Source of the DNA: a virus
Reading direction: 5' to 3' (one strand)
DNA: 64,000 nt
IMG/VR virus record: IMGVR_UViG_3300031578_000005
Coordinates: 32,001 to 96,000 of that record
Shown here: positions 17,484 to 48,692 of the stretch, piece after piece
Layout: each line of letters opens with the position of its first letter
Position numbering within the stretch: the first letter of the stretch is position 1
Translations under genes and position numbers: made by a program
The notes under the pieces: generated by a model
What the model saw: only the letters and a program-made list of their open reading frames with translations
The model's database searches: none
What the model was told of the DNA's origin: nothing

Positions 17484-17527
17484 TTTGCAGTTATTGTAAC
17501 ATTTACTATCTTTGCTACGTATTTATA
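17484..17527 (+). promoter_or_regulatory. composite promoter of tRNA cluster 1
   Basis: TTTG-N19-TATCTTTG nested with TGTAAC-N17-CGTA and GTATTTATA. Confidence 0.75.
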
Positions 17528-17745
17528 AAAAGGAGTATAAATTCCATCCATTGTTTTTACGTGAATGGAATGTAAGCGGCAAATGCTAATCCTGATTGAG
17601 AATATACTAAAGTAAGGAATAATCATATTGTCGGGTTCAGGGATTGAATCCTACATTAAGCAAAAACGGGATGAGGCGTTGCCATTAGGTGAGTCTATGA
17701 CCCCCGAAGCCCAACCCGTCAGTTTTGCTGTGGGTGGTAGTTCAC
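17527..17745 (+). mobile_element. IS200/IS605-derived MITE (omega-RNA-like right end)
   Basis: ends GAAGCCCAACCC...GGGTGGTAGTTCAC; left part resembles 45357-45440. Confidence 0.7.
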
Positions 17746-17797
17746 AAAATGCAAGCCTATTATTTAGGCAGTTAATTAAATTGAAGAATTAGAAATT

Positions 17798-17872
17798 ATG
17801 AAAAATTTTACACATACTCAGCCCCAACCGCAACAACATCCACAAGAAGTTGAATGGGGAAAATATGTTTAA
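17798..17872 (+). CDS. leader peptide 1 MKNFTHTQPQPQQHPQEVEWGKYV
   Basis: 10 of codons 6-16 are Pro/Gln/His; GAATGGGG pairs with terminator 5' arm. Confidence 0.85.
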   Translation: MKNFTHTQPQPQQHPQEVEWGKYV

Positions 17873-17901
17873 AAATTTTAAGAATATTTTAAAATGAACA
17901 T

Positions 17902-17931
17902 AGACCCCATTCGAAAGAGTGGGGTTTTTTT
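17902..17931 (+). terminator. attenuator terminator 1
   Basis: ACCCCATTC-GAAA-GAGTGGGGT followed by T-run. Confidence 0.85.
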
Positions 17932-17984
17932 GTAACAAAAAATTTGATATTACGTATAGTTGTTCTTTGAAATATAATTTAAAA

Positions 17985-18058
17985 CTGGGAGTGGGAAAAT
18001 TGGTTAATCCGCTTGCCTTGGACGCAAGAGACTGCTGAATCGTACTCAGCCTCCCAGA
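17985..18058 (+). tRNA. tRNA-Pro(TGG)
   Basis: cloverleaf; CTTGC-ctTGGac-GCAAG; atypical T loop. Confidence 0.8.
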
Positions 18059-18067
18059 CAATTTTAT

Positions 18068-18156
18068 CGAGTAGTAGCTCTGTAGCTGGTAGCAGTCCCG
18101 TCTTGGAAACGGGTGGAATATAAAATCCCTCGCAGGTTCGAACCCTGCCTATTCGA
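18068..18156 (+). tRNA. tRNA-Pro(TGG), long variable region
   Basis: CCCGT-ctTGGaa-ACGGG; GGTTCGAACCC. Confidence 0.8.
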
Positions 18157-18214
18157 CTGGTAGTCAAAGAGTTATATTGATTTCTACTTTGACTGTAAAA
18201 AAATCCATATATAT

Positions 18215-18289
18215 GGTGGTATTAGTGTAGTGGTTAGCACGATACTCTGTGAAAGTATTAGCACCAGTTCAAATCTGGTATATCACCCC
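18215..18289 (+). tRNA. tRNA-His(GTG)
   Basis: ATACT-ctGTGaa-AGTAT; GTTCAAATC. Confidence 0.85.
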
Positions 18290-18295
18290 AAATAT

Positions 18296-18369
18296 TACTC
18301 TCTGGTGTAATTGGTTAACATTTTGGAATTTGACTCCAAAGATTGTAGGTTCAAGTCCTACGAGAGTAA
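18296..18369 (+). tRNA. tRNA-Gln(TTG)
   Basis: TTGGA-atTTGac-TCCAA; GGTTCAAGTCC. Confidence 0.85.
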
Positions 18370-18375
18370 CAATAT

Positions 18376-18458
18376 TGTCCTCTGGCAGAATGGCTATTGC
18401 ATCGCCCTTTGAAGGCGACACCCGAAACGGTTTACAGGTTCGAATCCTGTGAGGACTA
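18376..18458 (+). tRNA. tRNA-Gln(TTG) with long variable arm
   Basis: TCGCC-ctTTGaa-GGCGA; CCG-AAA-CGG variable stem. Confidence 0.75.
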
Positions 18459-18466
18459 CACTATAT

Positions 18467-18537
18467 TACCAAATGGTGTAATGGTAACACCCAATCCTCT
18501 GAAGGTTGTGTTCTTGGTTCGAATCCAAGTTTGGTTA
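18467..18537 (+). tRNA. tRNA-Gln(CTG)
   Basis: CAATC-ctCTGaa-GGTTG; GGTTCGAATCC. Confidence 0.85.
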
Positions 18538-18628
18538 CTAAGATAGTTGAATCAATTATTATGAATGCATAAGAATTATTAATGGGCTTAGAACTTGGAA
18601 TTAAATATTAATTCATTATATTTGCAAA

Positions 18629-19488: not shown

Positions 19489-19530
19489 TTTGCAGATATT
19501 GTAACATTTACTAACTTTGTTGCGTATTTA
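19489..19530 (+). promoter_or_regulatory. composite promoter of tRNA cluster 2
   Basis: TTTG-N19-TAACTTTG + TGTAAC-N17-CGTA + GTATTTA. Confidence 0.78.
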
Positions 19531-19576: not shown

Positions 19577-19666
19577 ATGAAAAATTTACTCGACATATTG
19601 ATGGTAGTCTTAGCAGTTGACCTATTATGGGCAGATGCAGAGGATAAACTATGTTTAGTCGGGTAA
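19577..19666 (+). CDS. leader peptide 2 MKNLLDILMVVLAVDLLWADAEDKLCLVG
   Basis: 23 of 26 codons after MKN are L/V/D/A/E/W/G/M; GTCGGGT pairs with terminator 5' arm. Confidence 0.85.
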   Translation: MKNLLDILMVVLAVDLLWADAEDKLCLVG

Positions 19667-19693: not shown

Positions 19694-19727
19694 AAAAACC
19701 CGACAACTAAAAATGGTCGGGTTTTTT
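19694..19727 (+). terminator. attenuator terminator 2
   Basis: AAAAACCCGAC...GTCGGGTTTTTT. Confidence 0.85.
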
Positions 19728-19807
19728 GTTTTTATAGAAAGGATGTTCTTTGACATGTTGGAAATTTAAAAATAATTGGAGTGGGTTTGTAATCCACTCC
19801 TAAATAA

Positions 19808-19879
19808 CGACTGCGTAGTATAATGGCTAGTATTTCTCACTGTCTATGAGAGGGCGGGGTTCGAATCCCACGTAGTCGG
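19808..19879 (+). tRNA. tRNA-Asp(GTC)
   Basis: TCTCA-ctGTCta-TGAGA; GGTTCGAATCC. Confidence 0.85.
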
Positions 19880-19882
19880 CAT

Positions 19883-19956
19883 GGTGCGTTTGGCAAGTTG
19901 GTTAAGCCGTAAGACCTTCAATTTTACATTCATGGGTTCGAGTCCCATACGCACTA
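19883..19956 (+). tRNA. tRNA-Glu(TTC)
   Basis: TAAGA-ccTTCaa-TTTTA; GGTTCGAGTCC. Confidence 0.8.
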
Positions 19957-19962
19957 CGATAT

Positions 19963-20034
19963 GTTCGGTTCGAATAATGGTCAGTTCACAAAATTTTCAA
20001 TTTTGTTATAGCGGTTCAAATCCGCTACCGAGTA
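19963..20034 (+). tRNA. tRNA-Glu(TTC)
   Basis: CAAAA-ttTTCaa-TTTTG; GGTTCAAATCC. Confidence 0.8.
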
Positions 20035-20173
20035 CATTTAAAAACATACGGTTTAGGACCGTTATGGTTTCGACCATAGAAGAGTGACGATGTTCGCTAC
20101 TACGTCACTCTTTAATTTAAAAATCTTGACAATACCGCTATTATTTAATACATTTGCAATAAATCTTGAAATC

Positions 20174-20665
20174 ATGGCATTGGATGTTAATAGTGAAAAG
20201 GGTAAAGAAAGCGTTCGTCAAGAAGCTGAAATGTTAAAAGGTGTTGAAAAATGCTGGAATTATAATGTCGTTGTGACAAATAAAAATAAAGAGGCAATTT
20301 GTGATGGTTTTTTAGTAAAAAAAAGAGAAGTTGTTGCAATATTTGAAAGTAAATGTAGGGACCTATCATATAATGAATTGGAAAATTATGGTTCATGGCT
20401 TATTACATATGATAAAATAAAAACCTGTAAATATTTATCTGAATTATTGAAAGTACCATTTATTGGTTTCTTGTATCTAATCAAAGACAATATCACACTT
20501 TTTTGGAAAATCACTGATTCAGATGGAAAGTACTTATTTGAATTTAATCATAATAAAACATTAACGCAAGAAACAATTAATGGTGGCAAAATATACAGAG
20601 ATAATGCATATTTGCCATTTTCAGAAGCTAAATTTGTTCACAAAGAAGAAATTATGTTTCCATAA
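20174..20665 (+). CDS. PD-(D/E)XK-like nuclease-fold protein
   Basis: CDGFL...IFESKCR; likely start MALDVNS after TACATTTG promoter. Confidence 0.55.
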   Translation: MALDVNSEKGKESVRQEAEMLKGVEKCWNYNVVVTNKNKEAICDGFLVKKREVVAIFESKCRDLSYNELENYGSWLITYDKIKTCKYLSELLKVPFIGFLYLIKDNITLFWKITDSDGKYLFEFNHNKTLTQETINGGKIYRDNAYLPFSEAKFVHKEEIMFP

Positions 20666-20715
20666 TGAATGATATTACAAACACAATTAATTAATTTGTT
20701 TATAATATAGTACAT

Positions 20716-20786
20716 GGGGAATTGGCGTAAAGGTAGCGTATTTGGCTTACATCCAATTGGCAATAGTTCGATTCTATTATTCCCTA
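20716..20786 (+). tRNA. tRNA-Val(TAC)
   Basis: TTGG-ctTACat-CCAA; GTTCGATTC. Confidence 0.7.
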
Positions 20787-20942
20787 CTTCGTCTGGAAAA
20801 TCCAGAAATAAATTAGCAGTTATCGGCTTATTCATCGATAAACATTCGTTATCGGTTATTAAGACGATAAAGCTATCTGGAAAATTCAGATAATTTCACA
20901 AAATCATTGTTTTATTTAAAATAAACTCAGTATATTTATAAC

Positions 20943-21089
20943 TTGTCAGTATAAGACATTAAAACCTCGTTAGGGACTAACGAGTACACGAGTGGAGTAA
21001 AAGTAAGACTTCTAGCTTTTCGGAGCAGTAAGCAAATTGCCGTGAAACTCGAAGCTCAATCCATCACGAAGTGTGGATGGGTAGTTCAC
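20943..21089 (+). mobile_element. omega-RNA-like IS200/IS605 right-end element (copy B)
   Basis: near-identical to 45960-46109; ends GGGTAGTTCAC. Confidence 0.7.
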
Positions 21090-21175
21090 ATAGGTATCGT
21101 CTAAAGGTAAGACGCTTCCCGTCCGAGGGAAGAGATGGGAACTGCAGATAAGGTTCAATTCCTCCTGCCTATGCA
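21088..21175 (+). tRNA. degenerate tRNA, probably Gly(TCC)
   Basis: CATAGG/CCTATG acceptor; irregular anticodon loop containing TCC. Confidence 0.45.
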
Positions 21176-21178
21176 AAT

Positions 21179-21262
21179 GCTCTTATGGTGCAACTGGAGT
21201 GAGACACAGCAGTCTTAGAAACTGTTTCTTAAATGGTGTGGGTTCGAGTCCCACTAAGAGCA
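21179..21262 (+). tRNA. tRNA-Leu(TAG)
   Basis: GCAGT-ctTAGaa-ACTGT; GGTTCGAGTCC. Confidence 0.85.
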
Positions 21263-21975
21263 CAATTTACTTCTAACTTATTATTGATTACATTAATAAC
21301 AATATTTAAATATTTTATTGAGGTTTGTTCTTTGAAATACTTTTGTTGGGAGACATCGATTATACATAATTCAATTCCTTGTTCTAAACAGGCTTGAAAC
21401 TTACGTTGGTCATTATTTTGGATTTGACCTAATTTATCTTCACCAAATATTGGTTCGTAATGGAAAATACCATTAAGTTCAAATGCTAATTTAAGTGAGG
21501 GAATGTAAATATCTAATTCTGAATTGATGGTTGTTTTATTATTGAATAATATTTCTAAATTTCGGTATTGTTTGGTTAATTCAGTTTCAAGATATTGCTC
21601 AAGTTTCGACCTACGATTACCATTTGTTTTGTGTTTATTATTATATGTGGCAGCACATGAACGTGAACAAAAGTGATTGGTAGATTTTTTTTTATCTGAT
21701 AATTGAATCGTAATATTGTTGCCACAATTAGTACATTGAATTATTTCTTTTTTACCTTGTGACGATTGATAACAATTTAATGAACAATATTTACCACTAA
21801 ATTTAGCACTTTTACATGGGATTTGTTTTATTTTACGTTTTGTTAAATAAAAAATATTTGCACAGCCATAACATTTGCATGGTAATTTATCTAATGATTT
21901 TGATGTTAAAAACTCTTGTTCTGTATATAATTTAATCATATAATGATGTTTATAATAAATACTTATAATATTCAT
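21229..21975 (-). CDS. Zn-finger + PD-(D/E)XK/Vsr-like free-standing endonuclease
   Basis: CxxC...YCSxxC, FCSRSC; ELDIYIP..AFELNGIFHY...DQRK. Confidence 0.75.
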   Translation of the reverse strand: MNIISIYYKHHYMIKLYTEQEFLTSKSLDKLPCKCYGCANIFYLTKRKIKQIPCKSAKFSGKYCSLNCYQSSQGKKEIIQCTNCGNNITIQLSDKKKSTNHFCSRSCAATYNNKHKTNGNRRSKLEQYLETELTKQYRNLEILFNNKTTINSELDIYIPSLKLAFELNGIFHYEPIFGEDKLGQIQNNDQRKFQACLEQGIELCIIDVSQQKYFKEQTSIKYLNIVINVINNKLEVNCALSGTRTHTI

Positions 21976-22088
21976 TTTCTGTACGTATCATCAGTACAAA
22001 ATTTATCGAAATAAAAAACTGCTTATTCTGGGGGATGATAGTAAGTTCCAGACACTAAGGTAGGGGTGATAGTCTACATAGGCGTAAT

Positions 22089-22162
22089 GGGGTCGTAGCT
22101 CAATTGGCGAGAGCACCGCACTTGCAATGCGGAGGTTAGGGAATCGTGCTCCCTCGACTCCA
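22089..22162 (+). tRNA. tRNA-Ala(TGC)
   Basis: GGGG start with G3:U70; CCGCA-ctTGCaa-TGCGG. Confidence 0.85.
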
Positions 22163-22216
22163 CAAATGACTGTAAATCAACAATTTACAGTCATTATTTA
22201 AAGTAATCATTTACAT

Positions 22217-22303
22217 GGCTCAGTGGTGGAAATGGCAAGACACGCAGGACTTAAAATCCTGTCCACCGAAAGGTGGGTGTGGGTTCGACTCCCATCTGAG
22301 CTA
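22217..22303 (+). tRNA. tRNA-Leu(TAA)
   Basis: CAGGA-ctTAAaa-TCCTG; long variable arm. Confidence 0.9.
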
Positions 22304-22392
22304 CAATTACCGGATATTGCCAGATAAAATTTTAGTTTATTGATTATCAAATATTTAATAAATTATATTTTACCAGATATTGCCGGATACAT

Positions 22393-22466
22393 GGCTCTAT
22401 AACCCAAATGGTAGAGGTGGTGTCTTCAAACGGCATTTGTTTTCAGTTCGAATCTGAATAGAGCTA
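22393..22466 (+). tRNA. tRNA-Leu(CAA), short variable loop
   Basis: GTGTC-ttCAAac-GGCAT; GTTCGAATC. Confidence 0.7.
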
Positions 22467-22494
22467 CAACAGTATTTATAATAAAACTAAGGTT

Positions 22495-22980
22495 ATGAAT
22501 TATAAATTATTTTCTTACTTAATGATGATACTGGTGTTTGTATCATATGTTGTATTCATCTGGTCAAGATATGGCATACAAAAATCAATATCTGCCAGTT
22601 ATTATGTATTGCCTGAAAAAATCAATGTGTTATTCACATTATTTTGTTGGGGATTTGCATTTCCTGCGATAATTGTTGCACAAACGCCATTAATGTTTTT
22701 GGCAGGTTCTGCAATTGTTTTTGTTGGTGCTGCCGCAAGATTTAAAGAAAAACTAACAAAATCTGTTCATATGATAAGTGCTACAATTGGTGTTATTTTA
22801 AGTCAGGCATCAATATTTTTTGATTATCACCTGTGGCATCTTAATGCAATATTTGTATTATCGTCATTAATTATATTAGGTGTGCTATATTTTAAACACA
22901 TCGATAAATATATATGGTGGATTGAAATTTTTGCATTTTCAACAATATGTATTGCATTAGGTATTAATTCAATATTTTAA
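22495..22980 (+). CDS. multi-pass membrane protein
   Basis: several hydrophobic helices, SISASYY motif; late motif at 22471. Confidence 0.75.
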   Translation: MNYKLFSYLMMILVFVSYVVFIWSRYGIQKSISASYYVLPEKINVLFTLFCWGFAFPAIIVAQTPLMFLAGSAIVFVGAAARFKEKLTKSVHMISATIGVILSQASIFFDYHLWHLNAIFVLSSLIILGVLYFKHIDKYIWWIEIFAFSTICIALGINSIF

Positions 22981-22985
22981 AATAC

Positions 22986-23056
22986 ACGTCTTTGTTGTAA
23001 TGGTAGCATAAATCTCTCCAAAAGATTTAGTACTTGTTCGAATCGAGTAAGACGTG
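22986..23056 (+). tRNA. tRNA-Trp(CCA)
   Basis: AATCT-ctCCAaa-AGATT. Confidence 0.8.
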
Positions 23057-23118
23057 CAAAATAAAGTTTATTGAAACAATTACTTTTGCTGTTCGAGATT
23101 GTTTTTATGTTAAAATAA

Positions 23119-23475
23119 ATGATTATGAATAGCAAAACAGATAATTTTTCAGATATTGAAATAATTAAAATACTTTCAGAGTGTAAATCATTTAGAGAGG
23201 TTTTAATTAAAATCGGTTATAGTAGTAATGGAAGCGGTGGTTATAGTCTACTCAAACAACAATTAAAAAAACGTGGCATTCAAATACCTAAATATCATTA
23301 TTATGGTGATGGAAAAAAACGTAGCTTATATACATTAGATGAAATTTTAGTTGAGAATTCAACATATACTGCAAGAGGTCGATTAAAAAAACGTTTGGTT
23401 AAAGAAGGTATGTTAGAATATAAATGTGTTTCTGATAACACAATACGTAAATGGCTTAAATTATATGAAAAATAA
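23119..23475 (+). pseudogene. HNH-type endonuclease with apparent internal deletion
   Basis: LDEILVENSTY...LKKRLVKEG..EYKC joins directly to VSDNTIRKW; no HNH core. Confidence 0.55.
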
Positions 23476-23489
23476 ATGTGCTAATACAT

Positions 23490-23562
23490 GCGTCTATCGT
23501 TCAACGGTAAGACAACTGCTTCCAAACCAGTTAATGAGGGTTCGATTCGTTCCCGGTGTGCT
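23490..23562 (+). tRNA. degenerate tRNA (Gly TCC or Trp CCA)
   Basis: D arm and GGTTCGATTC present; anticodon register ambiguous; poor 3' pairing. Confidence 0.4.
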
Positions 23563-23689
23563 AAATCGAATTTAAATTTTAGTGGAATAATTTCAGCTTT
23601 GATTTTCATTTGTAACAAAACCAATTTTTTTTCGTATATATTACCAATAATATTTGTTAATTAACACAAAATGATTTAAATTTGCTATT

Positions 23690-24406
23690 ATGTATATAAT
23701 CTCAAAAAAGAAAGATTTTTATGATGGTGTTGTCTCGACAATGGGTATTGATAAGTCTATTGTTTTTAATCGAGATGATGTTGAAATTGGAGAAAATGAA
23801 TATCCAAAATTATTTAGCCACTCCAAAGGTTATTGGAATTCATTAATGAATGATACCATTAATAATTTACATCACCACAATATAAAAAAAGAGCATAAAG
23901 GCGATTATCAAGCATATAACTATTTTGTTATTGGATTTTGTGGAAAACTTTATTTGGGTATGAAGTTATATACAAAAAGTCAGAACATCTTTGATGGTTT
24001 AACAACAAAAATAATTTATGATATTGACTTAATTACTGAAATTATTGAAAACACCGGCTATCGAAGCAATTTAATTGATGAAATTAATTATGTTCGTAAT
24101 TATAATGCATTAGACATTTTTAGAAAATTTAATACACCTGTATTTGTATATGATAATGACTATAACCGAATCTCGATCAATGATAGAAATGAGCATAAGT
24201 TCATTATTAACGCCAATATATACGAATATGAATTTTATAAAATCTTTGATAGTTTTCATGCATTCCAAGAAATTCAAATGTTTATTAGCGGTGTATTGGG
24301 TAGTGGTGAAAAGGAAATAATCAAAATTACAGATAAAGATAAAATCGCTCAACATGGCTTTGACTATAAATATAGTTTTAGAAAAGATAAAGAAAATAAA
24401 AAATAA
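23690..24406 (+). CDS. conserved phage hypothetical protein
   Basis: 238 aa; KKDFYD N-terminus and HGFD..SFRK C-terminus. Confidence 0.75.
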   Translation: MYIISKKKDFYDGVVSTMGIDKSIVFNRDDVEIGENEYPKLFSHSKGYWNSLMNDTINNLHHHNIKKEHKGDYQAYNYFVIGFCGKLYLGMKLYTKSQNIFDGLTTKIIYDIDLITEIIENTGYRSNLIDEINYVRNYNALDIFRKFNTPVFVYDNDYNRISINDRNEHKFIINANIYEYEFYKIFDSFHAFQEIQMFISGVLGSGEKEIIKITDKDKIAQHGFDYKYSFRKDKENKK

Positions 24407-24413
24407 GTTCTTT

Positions 24414-24776
24414 GGGGGTGACCGGATTTGACAGCATGTTAGACTGGTAATGTAAGCAGGTAGTAGTTGAATCAGGCTACTTTAAAAAGGTTCAAAGTTA
24501 TAAACGCAAACAATTCCGAGGACATTATGTCCATTCCGACTTCACACTTAATTGTGGGAAGAAGTGCATTTGCAGAGAAAACTGAACTCGCATTTGCTGC
24601 ATAGGAAATAACTAATACAGTTAAGAACTCCTGAGTTGAAAGGATAAATTTAATACAGTTTCATGTTTGAACTGGTAGAATCAATCAATACTTTGTCGGT
24701 TTAGAGAAATCGAATAAACCTGTAGAAAACGTATTAATCACATGTGTGGACGTGGGTTCGAATCCCACTACCTCCA
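24414..24776 (+). ncRNA. ssrA: tmRNA
   Basis: GGGGGTGACCGGATTTGAC 5' end, tRNA-like 3' end GGTTCGAATCCCACTACCTCCA; tag ORF 24506-24604 ending AFAA*. Confidence 0.92.
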
Positions 24777-41413: not shown

Positions 41414-41428
41414 CAAAATAAAAATAAT

Positions 41429-41502
41429 GCAGGTAACGCATAAATGATGGTGCACCAGTTTACCAAACTGGAATAGAGTCGGTTTGATTCCGATTACCTG
41501 CT
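41429..41502 (+). tRNA. tRNA-Gly with ACC anticodon
   Basis: GCAGGTA/TACCTGC-T acceptor; CCAGT-ttACCaa-ACTGG. Confidence 0.7.
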
Positions 41503-41565
41503 CATTTACAATTAGTTGAAAATACATTTAGAATGTATTAAAATGAGTTTTGGCTCATTAACATT

Positions 41566-41670
41566 TTATCGTTGACGGAGTGGATTAACGTTGATACGAT
41601 ACTAAAGTCTGAGAGTGATAGTACGTTATCAATACTCAAGGACTCATGGGTTCGAATCCTGTACGATAAT
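41566..41670 (+). ncRNA. tRNA-like RNA with greatly extended anticodon arm
   Basis: acceptor TTATCGT/ACGATAA, D arm and GGTTCGAATCC T arm; long central stem. Confidence 0.55.
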
Positions 41671-41676
41671 TATTAC

Positions 41677-41769
41677 GGTAGAGTACTCAAATTGGTAAAG
41701 AGGTTTGTCCTGAAAACAAATAGGTCGTGTGATGAGCATGATGCGTGGGTTCGAACCCCACTTCTACCT
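41677..41769 (+). tRNA. tRNA-Ser(TGA)
   Basis: TTTGT-ccTGAaa-ACAAA; long variable arm. Confidence 0.85.
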
Positions 41770-42034
41770 CAAACAATTTAACCTGCAAGTTATTTTGTTT
41801 CTCATACAATACTATAAACAAGTTGTTATTGCAGTAATGAATTGATGTAAAGTATGTGTAAATTTTGGGTTGCATAAGAGGCTTTATTTTAATGTTCTGT
41901 GGATTGTTGTATTATACCCGTGGTTGGCAACTCGGAAAATAAGAAAACATTTGAGAGACATTATTATACTTGTAAAATGGTATTGAATAAGTGAGTAGGA
42001 GGCTCACCCCAAAATTTTTAATTTATTATTAAAT

Positions 42035-42109
42035 AGAGATGTAGCTGAGTAGGTTTAGCACCAGTTTGAAGGTCTGGGATTAACGTGGGTTCGATTCCCA
42101 CCGTCTCTA
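42035..42109 (+). tRNA. tRNA-Phe(GAA)
   Basis: CCAG(T)-ttGAAgg-(T)CTGG; GGTTCGATTCC. Confidence 0.7.
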
Positions 42110-42224
42110 CACAAGGTCTTATGAATGTTATTAATTAAACATATTATATTGTTACAATTATATATTACATTATTTTTATGAATTATTTAGTATTTATATT
42201 AAATTCGTCTATAAGACATGAATT

Positions 42225-43454
42225 ATGCAATTAGTTGAACAACATATTATCAATCGTAATCATATATTCTATAATGAATGTGATTCGTTATGTTTTAAAA
42301 CTAAAAATCTATATAATTCATGTTTATATGTCATACGTCAGGCATATATCAATGATAAGGTTAATTTATTATATGATTTACACTCATTAATGAAAGATAC
42401 TGAACAGTATAAAGAACTACCCGCTAAAGTGTCTTCCACAGTGTTGTTAATGATTCAAAAGAATTTCAAATCTTATTTCAAATCAAATGCAGAATTTTAT
42501 AAAAATTCATCTAAATTTAAAGATAGACCTAAATTACCCAATTATTTGGATAAAATAAATGGTAGATATTTTGCTTCATATACAAATCAAGCCATATCAA
42601 AAAAAGTGTTTAATAAATCACATAAAATATTATTATCTAAAACCAACATCGAGTTAACAACCAAAATAGTTGATTTTAATATCATCGATTGTGTTAGAAT
42701 TGTACCGAGATTAGACCACTATGTTATTGAAATAGTATATACCATTCCAGATAAACCTAAATTACCTAACAATAATAAATATTTATCTATTGATTTTGGT
42801 GTTAATAATTTAGCAACAATAACGTCAAATGTTAAAGATGTTAAACCTATTATTATTAATGGTAGACCATTAAAATCAATTAATCAATATTATAACAAAA
42901 AACTGGCACACTATAAATCTAAATTAGAATTGATTAATAAAAAGAAACATAGCAATAGGACAAGGAAATTGACTAACAAAAGAAAAAATAAAGTTGATTA
43001 TTATTTACATAAAGCAAGTAAGACAATTGTTAGTTTAACAAAAAACAATAATATTAACACCATAATAATAGGTAAGAACGATAATTGGAAACAAGGTATC
43101 AACATGACAAAGGCTAATAATCAAAACTTTGTTAATATACCACATAGTAGATTTATAGATATGATTATTTATAAATGCGAAATAGAAGGAATCAATGTTA
43201 TACTACAAGAAGAAAGTTACACAAGTAAAGCATCTTTTTTAAACTTAGATAATATACCTATTTATGGTGATAATCAAAAAAAGCATTTCAGTGGTTATCG
43301 TTATAACAGGGGTTTATATAAAATAAGAGGAAGAAAAGAATTTATTAATGCAGATGTGAATGGTAGTTATAACATATTAAGAAAAGCAATCCCAAAAGCA
43401 TTTGCTGATGGGATAGAGGGTATAGGAGTATATCCAATTAAACTTATGATTTAA
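42225..43454 (+). CDS. tnpB: solo TnpB (IS200/IS605, IS1341-like)
   Basis: SIDFGVNN, LHKAS, QEESYTSK, INADVNG; no Zn-finger Cys; no tnpA adjacent. Confidence 0.88.
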   Translation: MQLVEQHIINRNHIFYNECDSLCFKTKNLYNSCLYVIRQAYINDKVNLLYDLHSLMKDTEQYKELPAKVSSTVLLMIQKNFKSYFKSNAEFYKNSSKFKDRPKLPNYLDKINGRYFASYTNQAISKKVFNKSHKILLSKTNIELTTKIVDFNIIDCVRIVPRLDHYVIEIVYTIPDKPKLPNNNKYLSIDFGVNNLATITSNVKDVKPIIINGRPLKSINQYYNKKLAHYKSKLELINKKKHSNRTRKLTNKRKNKVDYYLHKASKTIVSLTKNNNINTIIIGKNDNWKQGINMTKANNQNFVNIPHSRFIDMIIYKCEIEGINVILQEESYTSKASFLNLDNIPIYGDNQKKHFSGYRYNRGLYKIRGRKEFINADVNGSYNILRKAIPKAFADGIEGIGVYPIKLMI

Positions 43455-43530
43455 TGAAAAAATAATATTTTATATTATTTTAAACTCTGAGGGAGTCCTT
43501 TAAAGATATAAATAACCTGTCCCTCTCCAT

Positions 43531-43603
43531 GCAGCATTGGTGTTTAACGATAGCATATGACTCTTCCAAAGTCGAGGTTTCGGTTTGAATCCGAAATGCT
43601 GCT
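43531..43603 (+). tRNA. tRNA-Gly(TCC)
   Basis: GACT-ctTCCaa-AGTC; GCAGCAT/ATGCTGC-T. Confidence 0.8.
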
Positions 43604-43616
43604 CTCTTATTGATAT

Positions 43617-43690
43617 TGTGGTGTAGCATGATTGGTTTATGCATCTGTCTTATACACAGGAGATTAAGGGTTCAAGTCCCTTCACCACAA
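43617..43690 (+). tRNA. tRNA-Ile(TAT)
   Basis: CTGT-ctTATac-ACAG; GGTTCAAGTCC. Confidence 0.75.
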
Positions 43691-43791
43691 CAAAAAGGTT
43701 GGAAATACGAAAATCAAAGCAGTAACTTTGAGAAGTAAATATTATACCTTCTATGAAAAATGAATTTTACTGATGAAATTTAGTAGTAGTT

Positions 43792-43863
43792 GTTTTATTA
43801 GCATAGCGGATAGTGCGTCTTGCGTTGAGCGAGAAGAGCTTGGTTCGAATCCAAGATAAGATC
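43792..43863 (+). tRNA. degenerate tRNA, anticodon uncertain (GTT or TTG)
   Basis: D and T arms present; irregular anticodon loop. Confidence 0.45.
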
Positions 43864-43928
43864 AAAATTCCTCAATGGAAAGTAGATTTGTTTGTTACGA
43901 TATTATAACTATCTTTACAAAAAAAATG

Positions 43929-44826
43929 ATTATGAAAAGAATTATGTTTTTAACATTTATTTTATTATCAACAATAGCATTTTCGGCAACATATTCTTCA
44001 ATCACCTCTGGTGATTGGAATATTGTTGGAACATGGAATAATAGCATACCAGTTGATGCAAATAATAACATTGTAACAATTAGCGCAGGACATACTGTAA
44101 CTGCAACTAATTTAATTTTTAATAACAGATTTACAATTAATATTGAATCTAGTGCTACATTAATAATTTATGCAAATCCTGTTGATGGAGATGCAATAAC
44201 AGTTAAAAATAATTTAACATTAAATATTGCTGATGGTGGATTAATAATTATTAGCGGTAATTTCAAAGTTAACTGTTGATGGAACATTAACAATTGATGG
44301 AGATTTATCTGCGGGAAATGGTTCGGTATTATTAGGAACTGGAAACGTTACTGTTACAGGAACTGTAACCGGGCCATCAGGATTTGTAACTGATTCACAA
44401 TTGCCTGTTGAATTATTATATTTTAACGCATATTATCAAGATGATGCTGTCGTAATTAATTGGGCAACAGCAAGTGAAACTAATAACGATTATTTTGCTA
44501 TTGAATATTCAGCTAATGCTCAAAATTGGTATTTTCTAACAAAAATAAATGGTGCTGGTAATTCTAAAATCAAAATTGATTATACCTATAAGTATAATGC
44601 CAATAATGATAATTATTACAGGCTTACACAGGTTGATTATAACGGCAAATCAGAAATCTTTACATCTGATATTGTGTATGTTAGCACGCATTATCTAAAC
44701 AAAAACATTAACTATGATATCTATGATATTAATGGTAGATATTTAGGAAATAAAGCAATTAAAAATTTACAGCATGGTATATTTTTAATTAAAAACGACA
44801 ATGAATTTAAGAAAATAATTCATTAA
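43929..44826 (+). pseudogene. Bacteroidota-type secreted protein (signal peptide, LPVEL module, T9SS CTD-like tail), frameshifted near 44265
   Basis: SGDWN..GTW; LPVELLYF..WATASETNNDYF..GAGNS; IYDINGR..GIFLIK. Confidence 0.7.
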
Positions 44827-44833
44827 TTGTAAT

Positions 44834-44918
44834 GCCGATGTCGCATAGTTGGTCAATTGCGCCACACTTGTAATGTGGAATCGTAAGAATGTCGTGGGTT
44901 CGAATCCTACCATCGGCT
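44834..44918 (+). tRNA. tRNA-Thr(TGT)
   Basis: CCACA-ctTGTaa-TGTGG; enlarged variable region. Confidence 0.85.
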
Positions 44919-44947
44919 CTCACTTTAACATAATAAATAACTGAAAT

Positions 44948-45349
44948 ATGAGTTTACAATCAAAAATTAGGACTGACATGGTAGCTGCCATGAAATCCAG
45001 AGATACTGAAACATTGTCATTATTAAGAGTTGCTGCTGGAGAATTTGGAAGGAAAATGAATAACGGCATTGAGCTTCCTGATAACCAAGTAATTGCAATT
45101 CTTAGAAAGATGTGTGAAAATGCTGTTGAAATGGGAAATTTTGGTGAAGTTGAGATTCTCAATAGATACATCCCCAAAATGCTTGATAAAGACCAAACAA
45201 AGGATATTATCGTAGATATTGTCAATAAGAATGGTTTTTCTGGAATTAAGGATTTGGGTAAGATCATGAGTGAATTAAAAAAGATATCTATGGCATCACA
45301 AGTTAATGGCAAATTAGCGAGTGATATTGCCAAACAAATTTTGCAATAG
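44948..45349 (+). CDS. GatB/YqeY domain protein
   Basis: IRTDMVAAMKSRD...LLR...E..ILNRYIPK..GKIMSELKK...NGK. Confidence 0.8.
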   Translation: MSLQSKIRTDMVAAMKSRDTETLSLLRVAAGEFGRKMNNGIELPDNQVIAILRKMCENAVEMGNFGEVEILNRYIPKMLDKDQTKDIIVDIVNKNGFSGIKDLGKIMSELKKISMASQVNGKLASDIAKQILQ

Positions 45350-45356
45350 TATTTAT

Positions 45357-45659
45357 AAACAGGAGAGTAAAACCAATTCATCGCTTTAGCGTGGATGGGA
45401 TGTAAGCGACAAACGTAAGTTTAACCCTGATTTACAGTATTTTACAGAAAAATTAAAAAACTTTAAAGTGAAAGCAACTTTTTGTATATTTATACGTATT
45501 TAATAATATATGCTAAAGTCATTTAAATATTAAGAACTTTGCGTTAAGAAATAATGTATCTGGGACGGATACTAAAACTCGGAACGAACTGCCTACATTA
45601 GTAGGAGTGTTGACTTCCGAAGTCCAACCCATCAGTTTTGCTGTGGGTGGGTAGTTCAC
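45357..45659 (+). mobile_element. internally deleted IS200/IS605 element (MITE)
   Basis: tnpB-like start MLKSFKY joined to a tnpB-like end; right end GGGTAGTTCAC. Confidence 0.72.
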
Positions 45660-45695
45660 AAGTAAATAACATTATTAATTATACAAACATGAAAA

Positions 45696-45929
45696 GTGAT
45701 GAGGGTCCTAAGCAGAGAAAAAACAGCAACATTGTTCTTATTTTTAGGAACATTTTTCAACCCTTTGGGTTACGATGCCCTTTTAAAATGGCTAATGGAT
45801 ACGACAGGGAGTTATTGGTTTTCAATTTCTATTTTTTACCTGTTATCTCTATCATGCTTTATCTCATACTTTGCCTTGGCTAAGATAAATCCATTTAAAT
45901 TAATAAAAATTAGAAAAAATAAGAAATAA
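45696..45929 (+). CDS. small membrane protein
   Basis: two hydrophobic helices, FFNPLGYDAL. Confidence 0.6.
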   Translation: MMRVLSREKTATLFLFLGTFFNPLGYDALLKWLMDTTGSYWFSISIFYLLSLSCFISYFALAKINPFKLIKIRKNKK

Positions 45930-45959
45930 TTAGTAATAGTTATTTCTTATTTTTGTAAT

Positions 45960-46109
45960 TTGTCAGTAATAAGACATTAAAACCTCGTTAGGGACTAACG
46001 AGTACACGAGTGGAGTAAAAGTAAGACTTCTAGCTCTTCAGAGCAGTAAGCAAATTGCTGTGAAACTCGAACCCCAATCCATCAGCTTTGCTGTAGGTGG
46101 GTGGTTCAC
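45960..46109 (+). mobile_element. omega-RNA-like right-end element (copy D)
   Basis: near-identical to 20943-21089. Confidence 0.7.
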
Positions 46110-46131
46110 AAAAATTGTTATATGAGAAAAC

Positions 46132-46205
46132 GTTCGGTTAGCATAATTGAATAATGCACGGCATTTCTAACGCTGCGACTACAGGTTTGAATCCTGTACC
46201 GAACA
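46132..46205 (+). tRNA. tRNA-Arg(TCT)
   Basis: ttTCTaa loop; GTTCGGT/ACCGAAC acceptor. Confidence 0.75.
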
Positions 46206-46333
46206 CAATAAAAAATATATGTGTAGATCAATTGGATTAGTGCCTCACGTTCCTAAAGTGAATATTATGAATTCGAATCTCATTAGTTAAAACATGAATA
46301 TACTATTAGCGAGTCCCGTCTCCGTCACTAAAT

Positions 46334-46405
46334 GTTCCCATAGTTTAATTGGAAAAATTTGGATTTCCTAAATCTAAGACTCAGGTTCAACTCCTGATGG
46401 GAGCA
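46334..46405 (+). tRNA. tRNA-Arg(CCT)
   Basis: TGGAT-ttCCTaa-ATCTA. Confidence 0.75.
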
Positions 46406-46436
46406 CAATAAATTTTAACAATTAAAACTTAAAAAG

Positions 46437-46712
46437 ATGAATATAATTAAAATTGAAAATGTAAAACAAATAACGGGGTTTCAAAATCGACTTGAGATCA
46501 AATCTGATTATAAGTATTCTTCAGAAAATTCGATAATGGCTATCTTAAGTGATGATGATATTAATAATGATAATTGCTTAGTTAAATTAAGAGGATATGT
46601 TATCAACATATTATTATTACCAAAAAGATATAAATATACTTTTAATGAAACTAAAACTGGTGAACTAATTGCAATACAATTAAGTAAAAATTGTGTTATT
46701 AGTTATTATTAA
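46437..46712 (+). CDS. hypothetical protein
   Basis: 91 aa ORF between tRNAs. Confidence 0.55.
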   Translation: MNIIKIENVKQITGFQNRLEIKSDYKYSSENSIMAILSDDDINNDNCLVKLRGYVINILLLPKRYKYTFNETKTGELIAIQLSKNCVISYY

Positions 46713-46715
46713 CAT

Positions 46716-46787
46716 GTCCCCATAGTTTAATTGAAAAAATGAAAGTCTTCGAAACTTAGGATATCGGTTTGACTCCGGTTGGGGATA
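46716..46787 (+). tRNA. tRNA-Arg(TCG)
   Basis: AAGT-ctTCGaa-ACTT. Confidence 0.72.
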
Positions 46788-46845
46788 CGAAATATAAACG
46801 TCTCTATGGTGTAATTGAATAGTACAATTTTACGAAAATAAATAT

Positions 46846-46921
46846 GTGCCTGTATCGCACTTCGCTACGAACGAAGAGAAGCGTAATTGGATACATGTGG
46901 GTTCGAGTCCCATCGGGCATT
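46846..46921 (+). tRNA. non-canonical tRNA-Arg(ACG) lacking a normal D arm
   Basis: CTTCG-ctACGaa-CGAAG; GGTTCGAGTCC; TGTATC pairs with GATACA in the variable region. Confidence 0.62.
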
Positions 46922-46993
46922 CAAAAATAATTAATGTTATTTTGTAACAATATCAGATTATTTTCGTAAAATTGTATAAATAAAAATTATATT

Positions 46994-47878
46994 ATGATAT
47001 CAAGAAGAGGTGGTTTAAAAGAACTGGCAATTTTCGATAATTTCGAAATTGATCGTAAGTTGCCAAAATATGCAAAAGATGATGCATCGGGTAAAAAAAG
47101 TAATAGCAATTTTATTAATTTTAATAATACCGGTGACTCAGAATCTGATGAAGGTGGTGTATGGCTGACAACGCAAACTACGAGTGGTAATGTTTCGATG
47201 AAACAACCATTTGGCGGTAACAGTTTTAGAAACAAATTAGTTAATTGGTTATTAAGAAAACCAAAAGTAATTGTGCCTGTTGCTAAAATTGGCGTAATTG
47301 AATTTTTCACCAATTTATCTAAATCATATACGGAATTAACACCAATTGCTGATATTGCTACACATTATAAAAATGCGTTGCTTCAAGCAAATAATATGGG
47401 ACAAACTGCATTGGTTGAAAAGCTCAAGAACCTTATTGATGTAGTGAGAGGTGAAGCACATTTAATTCAAATGAATTTAAGAAAATATGTTACAGAAAAA
47501 CAAGTAATTGATTTTTATGAACTTGTTGGTGAAGATAAGAATTTAAAACTGACATGGATTAAGAATTTTGGTAGAATTATTCCAGATGAGGTTTATGAGA
47601 TCAAAAAAAATGTTGATGAAAGAAATGTTTTTGATAATTACGTTATTCTTCACTATGATCCGGAAAATAATGGTGAAGCTTTAACTAAAGCAGAAATTGA
47701 AAAGAAAAAAGACCCGATATTATTTGGTGTAATAAAAAACAGTAAAAAACTTTATTATGTTGCTGACTGGAAAGATGATTATTGCGAATTAACATTAGAA
47801 GAAATGTTTACAAAACTAGGTGATAAGGTGTTGAAGATTAATAATAAAAACGTTAAAACATTTATTGATAAAGTATGA
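46994..47878 (+). CDS. conserved phage protein (KKKDPILFG...YYVADWKDDYC family)
   Basis: 294 aa; ECF-type promoter at 46943. Confidence 0.75.
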   Translation: MISRRGGLKELAIFDNFEIDRKLPKYAKDDASGKKSNSNFINFNNTGDSESDEGGVWLTTQTTSGNVSMKQPFGGNSFRNKLVNWLLRKPKVIVPVAKIGVIEFFTNLSKSYTELTPIADIATHYKNALLQANNMGQTALVEKLKNLIDVVRGEAHLIQMNLRKYVTEKQVIDFYELVGEDKNLKLTWIKNFGRIIPDEVYEIKKNVDERNVFDNYVILHYDPENNGEALTKAEIEKKKDPILFGVIKNSKKLYYVADWKDDYCELTLEEMFTKLGDKVLKINNKNVKTFIDKV

Positions 47879-48231
47879 ATACAACAGTAACTAAATTAGC
47901 AAATAATATTTCAAAGTTAACGACAGAAGAAATTGATGAATTAAATACCGTGCTTATAAATATGGGAATCGCATCAAATATTTATAAGTATTCAAATGGA
48001 ATTATTAATAATTCTCAATCAACGGCATATAATGTTTATCTCACAAGTGCTGGTGATAAAAAAATACTTATGGTCAAAACGCTTAAAGAATTATTTGGTA
48101 TTGGACTTAGAGAAGCTAAGGATATTATTGATAGTATACCTTGTCTTTTAGCTGAAGATGTTTCAATTGACATTGCTGAAGCATATAAAAATGATATCGA
48201 AAGTATTGGTGGTAAGATTGAAATAAAATAA
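47875..48231 (+). CDS. rplL: ribosomal protein bL12 (L7/L12) homolog
   Basis: VYLTSAGDKKI.MVKTLKELFGIGLREAKDIID..P...GGKIEIK matches the L12 CTD pattern. Confidence 0.8.
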   Translation: MNTTVTKLANNISKLTTEEIDELNTVLINMGIASNIYKYSNGIINNSQSTAYNVYLTSAGDKKILMVKTLKELFGIGLREAKDIIDSIPCLLAEDVSIDIAEAYKNDIESIGGKIEIK

Positions 48232-48237
48232 TATATA

Positions 48238-48582
48238 ATGAAAAAATATTTATTTGTTGGTGAAAAACGCTCAAATACTGCAATTCGAATGAATGTGACA
48301 TGGATAGATAAAAAATTAAGTGCAGGACATTTATCAAAAGCGGTTGAAAATATTGGGATTAATTGGGATGAATGTGCATTCAAAAACGTATTTGAAGACA
48401 ATATCGAGGATATTGCATCTTTTGATGGTATTATTATTGCAATGGGCAGAAAGGTTGAGAAAGAACTTAAAAAATATCAAATTAAACATGAATTTATATT
48501 TCATCCCGCAACGCGTGGCGAAGTTAGAAACATTGAAAAATATAAACAACATGTCAAAGATAGAATAGGGCATATCGTATGA
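48238..48582 (+). CDS. UDG-superfamily-like small protein
   Basis: LFVGE...IIAMGRK...FHPA motifs. Confidence 0.45.
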   Translation: MKKYLFVGEKRSNTAIRMNVTWIDKKLSAGHLSKAVENIGINWDECAFKNVFEDNIEDIASFDGIIIAMGRKVEKELKKYQIKHEFIFHPATRGEVRNIEKYKQHVKDRIGHIV

Positions 48583-48601
48583 CTATTTCACACTCTAATA
48601 T

Positions 48602-48692
48602 GGAAGATTGCCAGAGCTGGTTGATTGGGACACCCCGCTAAGGTGTTGTACAACTTAGACTTGTACCGTGGGTTCGAATCCCACATCTTCCT
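48602..48692 (+). tRNA. tRNA-Ser(GCT)
   Basis: ACACC-ccGCTaa-GGTGT; long variable arm. Confidence 0.85.

Follow-up and report, generated by a model that had tools for sequence, protein, structure and literature searches.

In the multivalent leaders of enterobacteria (thrL, ilvL/ivbL), a single leader peptide senses several amino acids at once, and with pheM, the leader of the E. coli pheST operon for phenylalanyl-transfer RNA (tRNA) synthetase, leader-peptide attenuation reaches the translation apparatus; this operon is the described target that comes closest to the one considered here. The expression of tRNA genes is generally thought to be set by promoter strength and growth-rate control and not by the sensing of codons, and the control of the often large tRNA sets of phages is, to our knowledge, essentially unknown. 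Here we analyze a stretch of 64,000 nucleotides (nt) of phage DNA (positions 32,001 to 96,000 of the IMG/VR record IMGVR_UViG_3300031578_000005; hereafter the window, whose numbering is used throughout), which is part of a single contig of 128.5 kb with a G+C content of 29% and is also contained in two DNA sequencing runs of soil metagenomes. Four units in this window, L1 to L4, each combine a promoter-like site, a small open reading frame (ORF) and an intrinsic terminator ahead of a block of tRNA genes. It is probable, in our view, that these units are ribosome-mediated leader-peptide transcription attenuators that gauge decoding capacity and gate the transcription of the tRNAs.

ARAGORN detects 31 tRNAs and one transfer-messenger RNA (tmRNA) between positions 17985 and 48693 of the window, every one of them on the plus strand. 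Together with weaker tRNA-like matches, these genes form four blocks:

17985..18538, plus strand: block 1, with two Pro(tgg), His(gtg), two Gln(ttg) and Gln(ctg)
19808..25794, plus strand: block 2, with Asp, two Glu, Val, a tRNA-like element (21090-21173), Leu(tag), Ala, Leu(taa), Leu(caa), Trp, the tmRNA and Met(cat)
30744..31043, plus strand: block 3, with Tyr(gta) and two Lys(ttt)
40342..48693, plus strand: block 4, with Cys, Asn, Ile(gat), a Gly(acc)-like element (41429-41502), Ser(tga), Phe, Gly(tcc), Ile(tat), a doubtful Gln(ttg), Thr, Arg(tct), Arg(cct), Arg(tcg) and Ser(gct)

The 20 amino acids are partitioned by these blocks into Pro/His/Gln, Asp/Glu/Val/Leu/Ala/Trp plus Met, Tyr/Lys, and Cys/Asn/Ile/Ser/Phe/Gly/Thr/Arg. 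The weaker matches, four in number, were contributed by Rfam (25725-25794, 41429-41502, 21090-21173 and 46846-46921); the first is read by ARAGORN as Met(CAT) when its threshold is lowered, and the anticodon loop of the second reads ACC, which assigns it to Gly. The third possesses a long variable arm and a non-standard anticodon loop, and the Rfam score of the fourth is marginal (30 bits). The doubtful Gln(ttg) of block 4 (43792-43863) carries a G at position 33 and falls below the Rfam gathering score. The blocks are not compact: protein genes are situated between the tRNAs of block 2, and genes including a TnpB-like one interrupt block 4, which also contains a strong internal terminator at 45918-45951.

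Ahead of each block, the leader ORF and its terminator are arranged as follows:

17798..17872, plus strand: L1 leader ORF, 24 amino acids, MKNFTHTQPQPQQHPQEVEWGKYV
17903..17932, plus strand: L1 intrinsic terminator with T-run; stem 17903-17926, -16.1 kcal/mol
19577..19666, plus strand: L2 leader ORF, 29 amino acids, MKNLLDILMVVLAVDLLWADAEDKLCLVG
19697..19729, plus strand: L2 intrinsic terminator with T-run; hairpin 19697-19723
30566..30667, plus strand: L3 leader ORF, 33 amino acids, MKKGNTYYKKYYYKHYVCKTGNTVLLSEKETDN
30689..30724, plus strand: L3 intrinsic terminator with T-run; hairpin 30689-30718, -18.7 kcal/mol; tRNA-Tyr begins 25 nt further on
40020..40145, plus strand: L4 leader ORF, 41 amino acids, MKTLTININISTSTSSRIGDSIFCSNFNGRIGNILSGFSFY
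40169..40201, plus strand: L4 intrinsic terminator with T-run; hairpin 40171-40195

The terminator hairpins range from -11 to -18.7 kcal/mol, and a T-run follows each of them. The composition of each leader mirrors the tRNAs downstream of it. Past the initial Met, Pro, Gln and His make up 10 of the 23 residues of L1; Asp, Glu, Val, Leu, Ala and Trp account for 21 of 28 in L2, which in addition has one internal Met; Lys and Tyr contribute 13 of 32 in L3, which contains the run YYKKYYYKHY; and Cys, Asn, Ile, Ser, Phe, Gly, Thr and Arg provide 35 of 40 in L4. With the amino-acid composition of the long ORFs of the contig as background, the enrichment of the own-block set has binomial P values of 1.8e-6 (L1), 2.6e-6 (L2), 3.4e-4 (L3) and 2e-8 (L4). 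In the pooled leaders, 79 of 123 residues match their own block, a number reached by none of 200,000 random peptide sets (maximum 53), and the actual pairing of leaders with blocks tops all 24 permutations, the runner-up scoring 60. As a control against cherry-picking, every ATG-started ORF of 20 to 45 amino acids on both strands of the 128.5-kb contig was ranked; among these 1,068 small ORFs, L1 and L2 each come fifth for their own set and L3 and L4 each come first, and the four ORFs that outrank L2 are nested starts of a single repeat ORF. When strict wobble rules are applied, the tRNAs of the own block decode 9 of 23 leader codons in L1, 17 of 28 in L2, 13 of 32 in L3 and 30 of 40 in L4.

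A first-pass annotation of the window, made from the DNA letters alone, had described four tRNA clusters that each begin with a promoter, an ORF of 24-41 amino acids and an intrinsic terminator, had claimed that leader composition mirrors the anticodons downstream and that the four leaders together cover all 20 amino acids, and had proposed a permutation test of leaders against downstream sets. The units are present, with promoter-like sites as well as hairpins and T-runs; the match in composition holds up in the comparison with random peptide sets and in the permutations; and the coverage takes the form of the partition given above. The tentative assignment of Met to L2 has become firmer, since block 2 of related phages holds Met(CAT), placed after Leu(taa)/Leu(caa), and leaders of the L2 type in these relatives (class 2, see below) carry internal ATG codons.

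The first-pass annotation had also noted a leader segment complementary to the 5' arm of the terminator, and such a segment is present in L1, L2, L3 and L4. With the terminator arms designated regions 3 and 4, this segment region 2 and the upstream regulatory-codon segment region 1, the pairing partners are:

17852..17859, plus strand: L1 region 2, GAATGGGG, which can pair with region 1 (CCCCA, 17822-17826) or with the terminator 5' arm CCCCATTC
19586-19594: L2 region 1, TTACTCGAC
19658-19666: L2 region 2, GTCGGGTAA, overlapping the stop codon; its GTCGGGT pairs with ACCCGAC of the terminator 5' arm
30619-30627: L3 region 2, TAAGACTGG; terminator 5' arm CCGGTCTTA, with one G-U pair
40033-40039: L4 region 1, CGATAAA, which pairs with 40121-40127
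40124-40133: L4 region 2, ATCGGGTTTT; terminator 5' arm AAAACCCGAAT

The leader RNAs were folded with ViennaRNA to their minimum free energy (MFE). In the MFE structure of the full leader RNA, the terminator (3:4) is accompanied by a helix in which the regulatory-codon segment holds region 2 (1:2); this helix is seen for L1, L2 and L4, and L3 instead forms a larger enclosing hairpin. When the RNA is cut at the terminator loop, region 2 pairs with the terminator 5' arm (2:3) in L1, L3 and L4, and L2 alone retains 1:2. In a crude ribosome model that bars 30 nt around the A site from pairing, a mask over the regulatory codons leads to the formation of 2:3, and a mask on the last codons or the stop codon causes it to be lost or weakened, with 0, 3, 0 and 5 nt of the arm still paired in L1 to L4, respectively. 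Folding and the ribosome mask thus reproduce a trp/his-type layout with the alternative helices 2:3 and 3:4 and a putative helix 1:2; the first-pass annotation had likened the units to trp/his/ilv attenuators.

In the mechanism that we propose, transcription would start from a host-type promoter and a ribosome would translate the short leader. If reading is fast, this ribosome would get to the end of the ORF and cover region 2 or part it from region 3; the terminator hairpin 3:4 would then form and transcription would end ahead of the tRNAs. If the matching aminoacyl-tRNAs are scarce, it would linger on the regulatory codons and thereby hold region 1, leaving region 2 free to pair with the terminator 5' arm; the terminator would be blocked and RNA polymerase would enter the tRNA block. 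Because each leader is written in codons that the tRNAs of its own block decode, each unit would serve as a negative-feedback gauge for one part of the genetic code, with the block on when it is needed and off when tRNAs suffice. Computation establishes the anatomy of the units, their statistics, their conservation, the covariation of their helices and the co-variation of leader codons with tRNA content; translation of the leaders, the read-through response and the physiological trigger considered below are inferred.

Relatives of the phage were collected through its B12-type ribonucleotide reductase (RNR), which is 65-73% identical to RNRs on IMG/VR contigs of up to 675 kb. Five of the RNR-sharing relatives are complete genomes of 321-363 kb; most likely, then, the contig studied here covers only part of the genome of a huge phage, which would measure about 320-360 kb as a whole. 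The 81 loci supplied by the RNR-anchored scan include 30 with tRNAs, and for 13 records the DNA further upstream was added afterwards. A pipeline that called a hairpin of -9 kcal/mol or lower with a T-run, an ATG-started ORF of 18-60 amino acids ending at most 70 nt before it and a tRNA at most 400 nt after it returned 89 instances, of which 88 belong to six leader classes. They represent 72 distinct leader sequences (11, 14, 24, 19, 2 and 2 in the respective classes), to which the counts below refer. The first-pass annotation had recommended a check of related huge phages for homologous leaders; the same four classes occur in the five complete genomes, which possess all four units in the same order, and in many fragments. 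A pattern scan of IMG/VR for the back-translated Lys/Tyr run, which is independent of the pipeline, gave 21 matches; in 20 of them a small in-frame ORF is followed by a terminator and then by a tRNA for Lys or Tyr, and the locus ends within the 21st. The remaining pipeline instance, the 89th, proved to be a spurious terminator call within one of the window's genes and was rejected. Megablast of window positions 17400-42000 against the phage collection yielded zero matches, and the 878-amino-acid helicase-like protein of the contig, when used as a second anchor, retrieved seven loci, of which four lack tRNAs and three are the known RNR region, reached via a paralogue; this anchor contributed nothing on L1 or L2.

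In the relatives, region 2 is situated 19-10 nt before the stop codon in class 1, overlaps it in class 2 and lies 24-47 nt before it in class 3. The helices themselves co-vary. In an alignment-free comparison, the best duplex between the terminator 5' arm and its own leader is more stable than that with shuffled leaders, with mean z values of -4.3, -3.2, -3.7, -2.5, -2.4 and -4.2 for the six classes, and in 55 of the 72 sequences no more than 5 of 200 shuffles reach the observed duplex energy. Arms that are specific to a lineage are tracked by the leader: in class 2, ACCCGACTA goes with TAGTCGGGT and ACCCGACTGT with ACAGTCGGGT; in class 3, AACCCTGATCTT goes with AAGATCAG; in class 4, AACCCGTATC goes with GATACGGGTT. 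Across the 11 class 1 sequences, 97.7% of the alignment cells of the 2:3 helix are paired, with one compensatory change from UA to CG, and 99% of the cells of the terminator are paired, with compensatory change at four pairs. At locus L091, a class 1 leader, TGG has become CGG (Trp to Arg) and both terminator arms are altered to match. For class 2, 79.4% of the 2:3 cells are paired, counting as unpaired the four rows of alignment A3 whose region 2 lies elsewhere (L075, L089, L096, L100); both sides have changed in 10 cells, and the covariation score of 0.203, versus 0.121 for shuffled data, is reached by none of 500 shuffles. The class 4 alignment (A4), from which 2 of the 19 sequences (L014, L016) were left out, is too gappy and was not used for pair counts. 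The compensatory antiterminator changes that the first-pass annotation had suggested looking for are thus found in class 1 (L091) and in class 2 (10 cells).

The most telling result is the co-variation of the leaders with tRNA content, which the first-pass annotation had proposed to look for and which extends down to the codon level. The fourth block is split in two divergent relatives, L045 (together with L100) and L081. In the split lineage, a leader rich in Thr, Arg and Ile (e.g., MKNLIKITRITRKRRTTSSNGFIV) precedes Thr, Arg and Ile tRNAs, and the Asn, Phe, Ile(tat), Ser, Gly, Leu(tag), Leu(aag) and Cys tRNAs stand behind a second leader, in which Asn, Phe, Ser, Gly, Cys and Leu are abundant. 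The Leu tRNAs that read CUN codons have thereby moved out of block 2, and the new leader contains CTA, CTG and CTT. The class 2 leader L100 of the same genome encodes Leu by TTA or TTG only (4/4), and its block retains just Leu(taa) and Leu(caa). Each of six further class 2 leaders has 2-4 CTN codons, with a CUN-reading Leu tRNA in its block. The codon table across the relatives from which such comparisons are drawn misses the class 4 leader of G009 and wrongly joins the block 4 tRNAs of L065, where a minus-strand gene precedes tRNA-Cys, to block 3; its raw counts of own versus other codons are not normalized for block size and are used per row only. The Tyr and Lys tRNAs behind the class 3 leader of L045 were read by eye; at L045:8819-9100, the Lys tRNA carries an insertion in its D region, and both this tRNA and the Tyr tRNA were missed by ARAGORN.

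The signal to which the units respond is probably tRNA supply, because extra tRNA cannot cure amino-acid starvation and because the match between leader and block reaches down to isoacceptors. The host's tRNAs might be scarce for the codons of an AT-rich phage, be degraded in the course of infection, or be cut by anticodon nucleases. A ribosome stalled at a codon cannot distinguish a missing tRNA from an uncharged one, and the architecture is the same as that of the charged-tRNA sensors of enterobacterial operons; the attenuators might therefore be real and yet report amino-acid starvation, as in trp and his, with the tRNA blocks as part of a starvation regulon. We regard this as unlikely: feedback through more tRNA would give no relief from starvation and would be useless, and the sensing of an amino acid needs no isoacceptor match of the kind seen with the CTN and TTR codons for Leu, which track the matching Leu anticodons. 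In addition, a gene close to the tRNA blocks points to tRNA damage as a concern of the phage:

27066-28163: T4 Rnl1-like RNA ligase, adjoining the tRNA blocks

An enzyme of this type would fit a phage that copes with broken tRNAs.

Several features of the leader ORFs suggest that they are translated. An ATG and an open frame are retained in all 72 distinct sequences, in DNA of 29% G+C with its frequent stop codons; the two indels within class 1 ORFs measure 6 and 3 nt, and gaps after the stop codon are not multiples of three; conserved residues are encoded by two to five different codons. The summed ratios of nonsynonymous to synonymous change (pN/pS) for classes 1 to 4 are 0.36, 0.60, 0.67 and 0.74. 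By inspection, many replacements in classes 2 and 4 stay within the amino-acid set of the own block, so that composition appears to be kept more than position in these two classes. These data bear on the idea of a switch made of RNA only, in which, much as in a T-box, codon-like runs would bind tRNA anticodons directly or bind a protein, with an ORF that is incidental. T-boxes, too, employ terminator/antiterminator alternatives, and codons are inherently complementary to anticodons, but neither a T-box nor any other cis-regulatory family of Rfam matches in the window, and an incidental ORF would hardly keep its start and frame in every sequence and its indels to multiples of three. Moreover, the leaders encode as many as eight amino acids of a set by numerous codons in frame, which vary synonymously, and a single specifier has no need for this. 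We give this explanation very little credence; the conserved in-frame ORFs argue for the ribosome as the sensor.

The promoter-like sites of the four units, and one additional site close to L3, are located at:

17484..17514, plus strand: L1 promoter-like site, TTTG-N19-TATCTTTG, overlapping a GTAACA...CGTAT motif
19489..19519, plus strand: L2 promoter-like site, TTTG-N19-TAACTTTG
30336-30364: extra promoter-like site near L3, GTAACA-N14-ACGTATAAT
30505..30545, plus strand: L3 promoter-like region, GTAACA-N14-ACGTATTT followed by TAACTTTG
39946..39976, plus strand: L4 promoter-like site, TTTG-N19-TAACTTTG, downstream of the terminator of the preceding gene (39640-39671)

The leader promoters of the relatives share the pattern TTTG-N19-TAnnTTTG, which we take to be the consensus recognized by the primary sigma factor of Bacteroidota (-33/-7). 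It occurs nine times in the window, where 4.3 occurrences are expected, and three of these are the L1, L2 and L4 sites (17484, 19489, 39946). In the relatives, TAnnTTTG, scored as a consensus match only, is found at most 110 nt from the leader ATG in 67 of the 72 sequences, and the -33/-7 pattern lies 27-45 nt ahead of the ATG in 10 of the 11 class 1 leaders. The leaders have no Shine-Dalgarno sequence; a host among the Bacteroidota is suggested only by this absence and the promoter consensus. An exact scan of IMG/VR for the leader-promoter motif returned one match, inside a gene and with no tRNA nearby, which was judged to be a chance occurrence.

The gene upstream of a leader can carry a terminator of its own before the leader promoter, as seen in L002, L066 and L071 and, within the window, at 39640-39671; the leader hairpin is thus more than the terminator of the operon upstream. 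The distance from the terminator stem to the first tRNA is at most 48 nt in 47 of the 72 instances, which leaves no room for a separate promoter. A second repeated motif, GTAACA-N14/15-(A)CGTAT(AAT), is present in its strict form in 29 copies on the contig, 28 of them on the plus strand; most lie beyond the window, densely in the contig's last 35 kb, and the motif overlaps the promoters of L1 to L4. It could be a promoter. Its copies include:

17932-17960, 27022-27047, 30336-30364 and 50849-50874 of the window, and many beyond 62000: GTAACA motif
17932..17960, plus strand: promoter-like site GTAACA-N14-ACGTATAGT, between the L1 terminator and tRNA-Pro

The corresponding spacer is only 9-30 nt long in 8 of 10 relatives and leaves no room for such a site.

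Conserved boxes are also found between terminators and tRNAs. The box GTTCTTTGACATGTTGGAAATTT (window 19742-19764; 14 of 14 class 2 relatives) runs up to the first tRNA of block 2 or stops a few bases short of it; this leaves too little distance for a promoter of that tRNA, and the box may represent a signal for 5'-leader processing. A shorter box, GTTCTTTACATAT, precedes tRNA-Thr in class 4. In class 3, the terminator-to-tRNA spacers of L004, L022, L025, L054, L064 and L067 extend over 140-170 nt and contain arrays of ATGAAAAAC(A/G) or GCATAAAAACGCATA, which may be binding sites of a putative regulator. Ten of the 14 class 2 leaders possess a conserved box, CTCCTTTCTT, between the stop codon and the terminator (window 19687-19696; columns 54-63 of A3); it resembles the 3' end of 16S rRNA and could pair with the GAGGA of Glu-Asp codons.

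The boxes ahead of the first tRNA, the promoter-like site behind the L1 terminator and the conservation of the peptide sequences would all be in keeping with conserved micro-proteins that merely have terminators of their own, with tRNAs transcribed from other promoters and the likeness in composition due to some other cause. However, we know of no other cause by which six leader classes would mirror their tRNAs and change with them; the short spacers leave no place for other promoters in the majority of instances; changes in the 3' part of the ORF are matched by changes in the terminator arm, as expected of an RNA helix; and residues differ between relatives while composition is kept. Such micro-proteins are, in our opinion, a most improbable explanation.

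A number of observations weigh against the attenuator interpretation that we prefer. As many as 44 of the 123 leader residues have no counterpart in the own block; the mismatch is partly explained by the helices that the codons concerned also encode, and Lys at position 2 is nearly universal among the leaders. The pN/pS values of 0.6-0.74 in classes 2-4 indicate moderate constraint only, and the complementarity between leader and terminator arm in class 4 is clearly above shuffles in only 10 of 19 sequences and weak in the other nine. The relatives share ancestry, so that counts of sequences are not counts of independent events. Blocks 2 and 4 span 6 and 8.4 kb, respectively, with protein genes, the TnpB-like insertion and the terminator at 45918-45951 in between; control of the distal tRNAs (Arg, Ser(gct), Met) and of the tmRNA by the leaders is presumed and unproven. 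The site at 17932-17960 could let block 1 bypass its attenuator at some stage, and the L1 promoter-like site in the window lies 284 nt from the ORF owing to a repeat-like insert (described below). Region 2 of L3 is placed 37-47 nt before the stop codon (24-47 nt in most of class 3) and would not be covered by a ribosome at the stop; in our model, a terminating ribosome would here separate regions 2 and 3 and not cover region 2. Finally, thermodynamics alone yield the antiterminator in L1, L3 and L4 in the absence of a ribosome, and termination would thus depend on efficient translation, unlike textbook superattenuation.

Read-through of three of the four leaders without a ribosome is what one might expect from a timer of infection, in which the blocks would be off early and all four would open once the phage or a host defense slows translation in general. 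The leader promoters are of the host type, and most of the contig carries another repeated motif, which would accord with such a temporal program. Yet a timer has no need for four disjoint leader compositions or for the tracking of tRNAs at the codon level, and we judge it improbable that the units act mainly as a timer and not as codon-specific gauges.

If codon-specific attenuation is accepted, a further-reaching proposal can be made, which we put forward tentatively as possible and would not yet call probable. The units might together constitute a modular, closed-loop monitor of decoding, with the code divided among four tRNA regulons, or five in some lineages, that are gated independently of one another and are each read by a ribosome on a test peptide. 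The phage could then detect which tRNA families of the host are lacking or destroyed, for instance by anticodon nucleases that attack Lys or Tyr tRNAs, and replace only those, with a partition adapted to the defenses that the phage meets. The defense context is provided by 'Evasion of antiviral bacterial immunity by phage tRNAs' (PMC11555353).

The insert that separates the L1 promoter from the L1 ORF is the following element:

17525..17797, plus strand: structured 273-nt insert, missing from relatives

It is richer in G+C, and blastn finds partial copies at 45355-45413, 45611-45661 and 46068-46113 of the window, so that parts of it recur ahead of a 76-amino-acid ORF and ahead of tRNA-Arg(tct). 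The shared 3' part comprises a conserved hairpin followed by TTCACAA. Rfam holds no family for the insert or its repeats, which look like a small mobile or processing element. Just ahead of the Arg tRNAs of block 4 lies a hydrophobic ORF of 73-77 amino acids (…REKTATLFLFLGTFFNPLGYDALLKWLMDTTGSYWFSISIFYL…; 45699-45929) with the terminator at 45918-45951 as its own; it is conserved in L003, L014, L016, L062, L065 and L068.

The genes of the contig include those for a terminase large subunit, the helicase-like protein, homing endonucleases, the RNR, the RNA ligase and two TnpB/transposase-like proteins. Besides the ligase gene, those in the neighborhood of the blocks are:

28205-28999, 36184-37107 (minus strand), 42225-43454 and 14786-15922: NUMOD3 and HNH homing endonucleases, TnpB-like and transposase-like genes
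42225-43454: the TnpB-like gene, inserted inside tRNA block 4

The second transposase-like gene is located upstream of tRNA block 1. Two GTDB contigs that carry the Lys/Tyr leader (L123 and L124, from metagenome-assembled genomes labeled Paceibacterota and Clostridia) are probably phage contigs binned into bacterial genomes and uninformative on the host. Several tRNAs deviate from the usual form. Lengths of 84-90 nt are seen in five tRNAs for amino acids other than Leu, Ser and Tyr (18068-18157, 18376-18459, 30832-30916, 40342-40431 and 44834-44919; Pro, Gln, Lys, Cys and Thr), which, together with the Lys and Tyr tRNAs of L045 that ARAGORN missed, suggests a phage clade with an unusual tRNA architecture. 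A Phe tRNA with the anticodon AAA is present at contig positions 113888-113962. The tmRNA of the phage lies at 24414-24779 within block 2 and scores 111.8 bits with Rfam. In two relatives, block 4 ends in tRNAs with a CTA anticodon, labeled 'Pyl' by ARAGORN (L051:20447, L081:23174), a hint at read-through or recoding of TAG in part of the clade.

When the four units are compared with described systems, they resemble trpL, hisL, pheL, leuL and the multivalent thrL and ilvL/ivbL in that a promoter-like site, an ORF with regulatory codons, the helices 2:3 and 3:4 with a putative helix 1:2, and an intrinsic terminator precede the regulated genes. Their targets are not the classical ones: behind all four terminators lie tRNA genes and not genes for amino-acid biosynthesis or synthetases. 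At the gathering score, Rfam recognizes only tRNAs and the tmRNA in the 64-kb window and none of the Trp, His, Thr and Leu leader families; between 17400 and 24900, no further credible match was obtained at E <= 1. Among the texts reached by a full-text literature search, we found no description of leader-peptide attenuation acting on tRNA genes, and in the main text of 'Clades of huge phages' (PMC7162821) a word search for 'attenuat', 'leader' and 'terminator' found none of them.

If our interpretation is correct, these units would be the first case of leader-peptide attenuation that acts on tRNA genes, a direct feedback from the speed of decoding to the synthesis of tRNA, and a natural set of sensors specific for codon families. 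They would also open the arms race between phage tRNAs and host defenses that cleave tRNA to testing, and, being only about 200 nt long, they could be put to use to report tRNA availability.

With T-boxes, the units share the choice between terminator and antiterminator as a report on the state of specific tRNAs; a T-box, in contrast, binds tRNA without translation, senses a single tRNA and controls synthetase or amino-acid genes. The pheM leader differs in that it controls a synthetase gene of a cellular genome in response to one amino acid, whereas tRNA genes are the target here. Unlike the enterobacterial attenuators, the units described here are phage-borne, possess a Bacteroidota-type promoter and do without a Shine-Dalgarno sequence; as many as eight amino acids are addressed by a single leader, and the full set of 20 is shared out among four leaders; and because the regulated genes are tRNA genes, what is sensed, decoding capacity, is also what is made.

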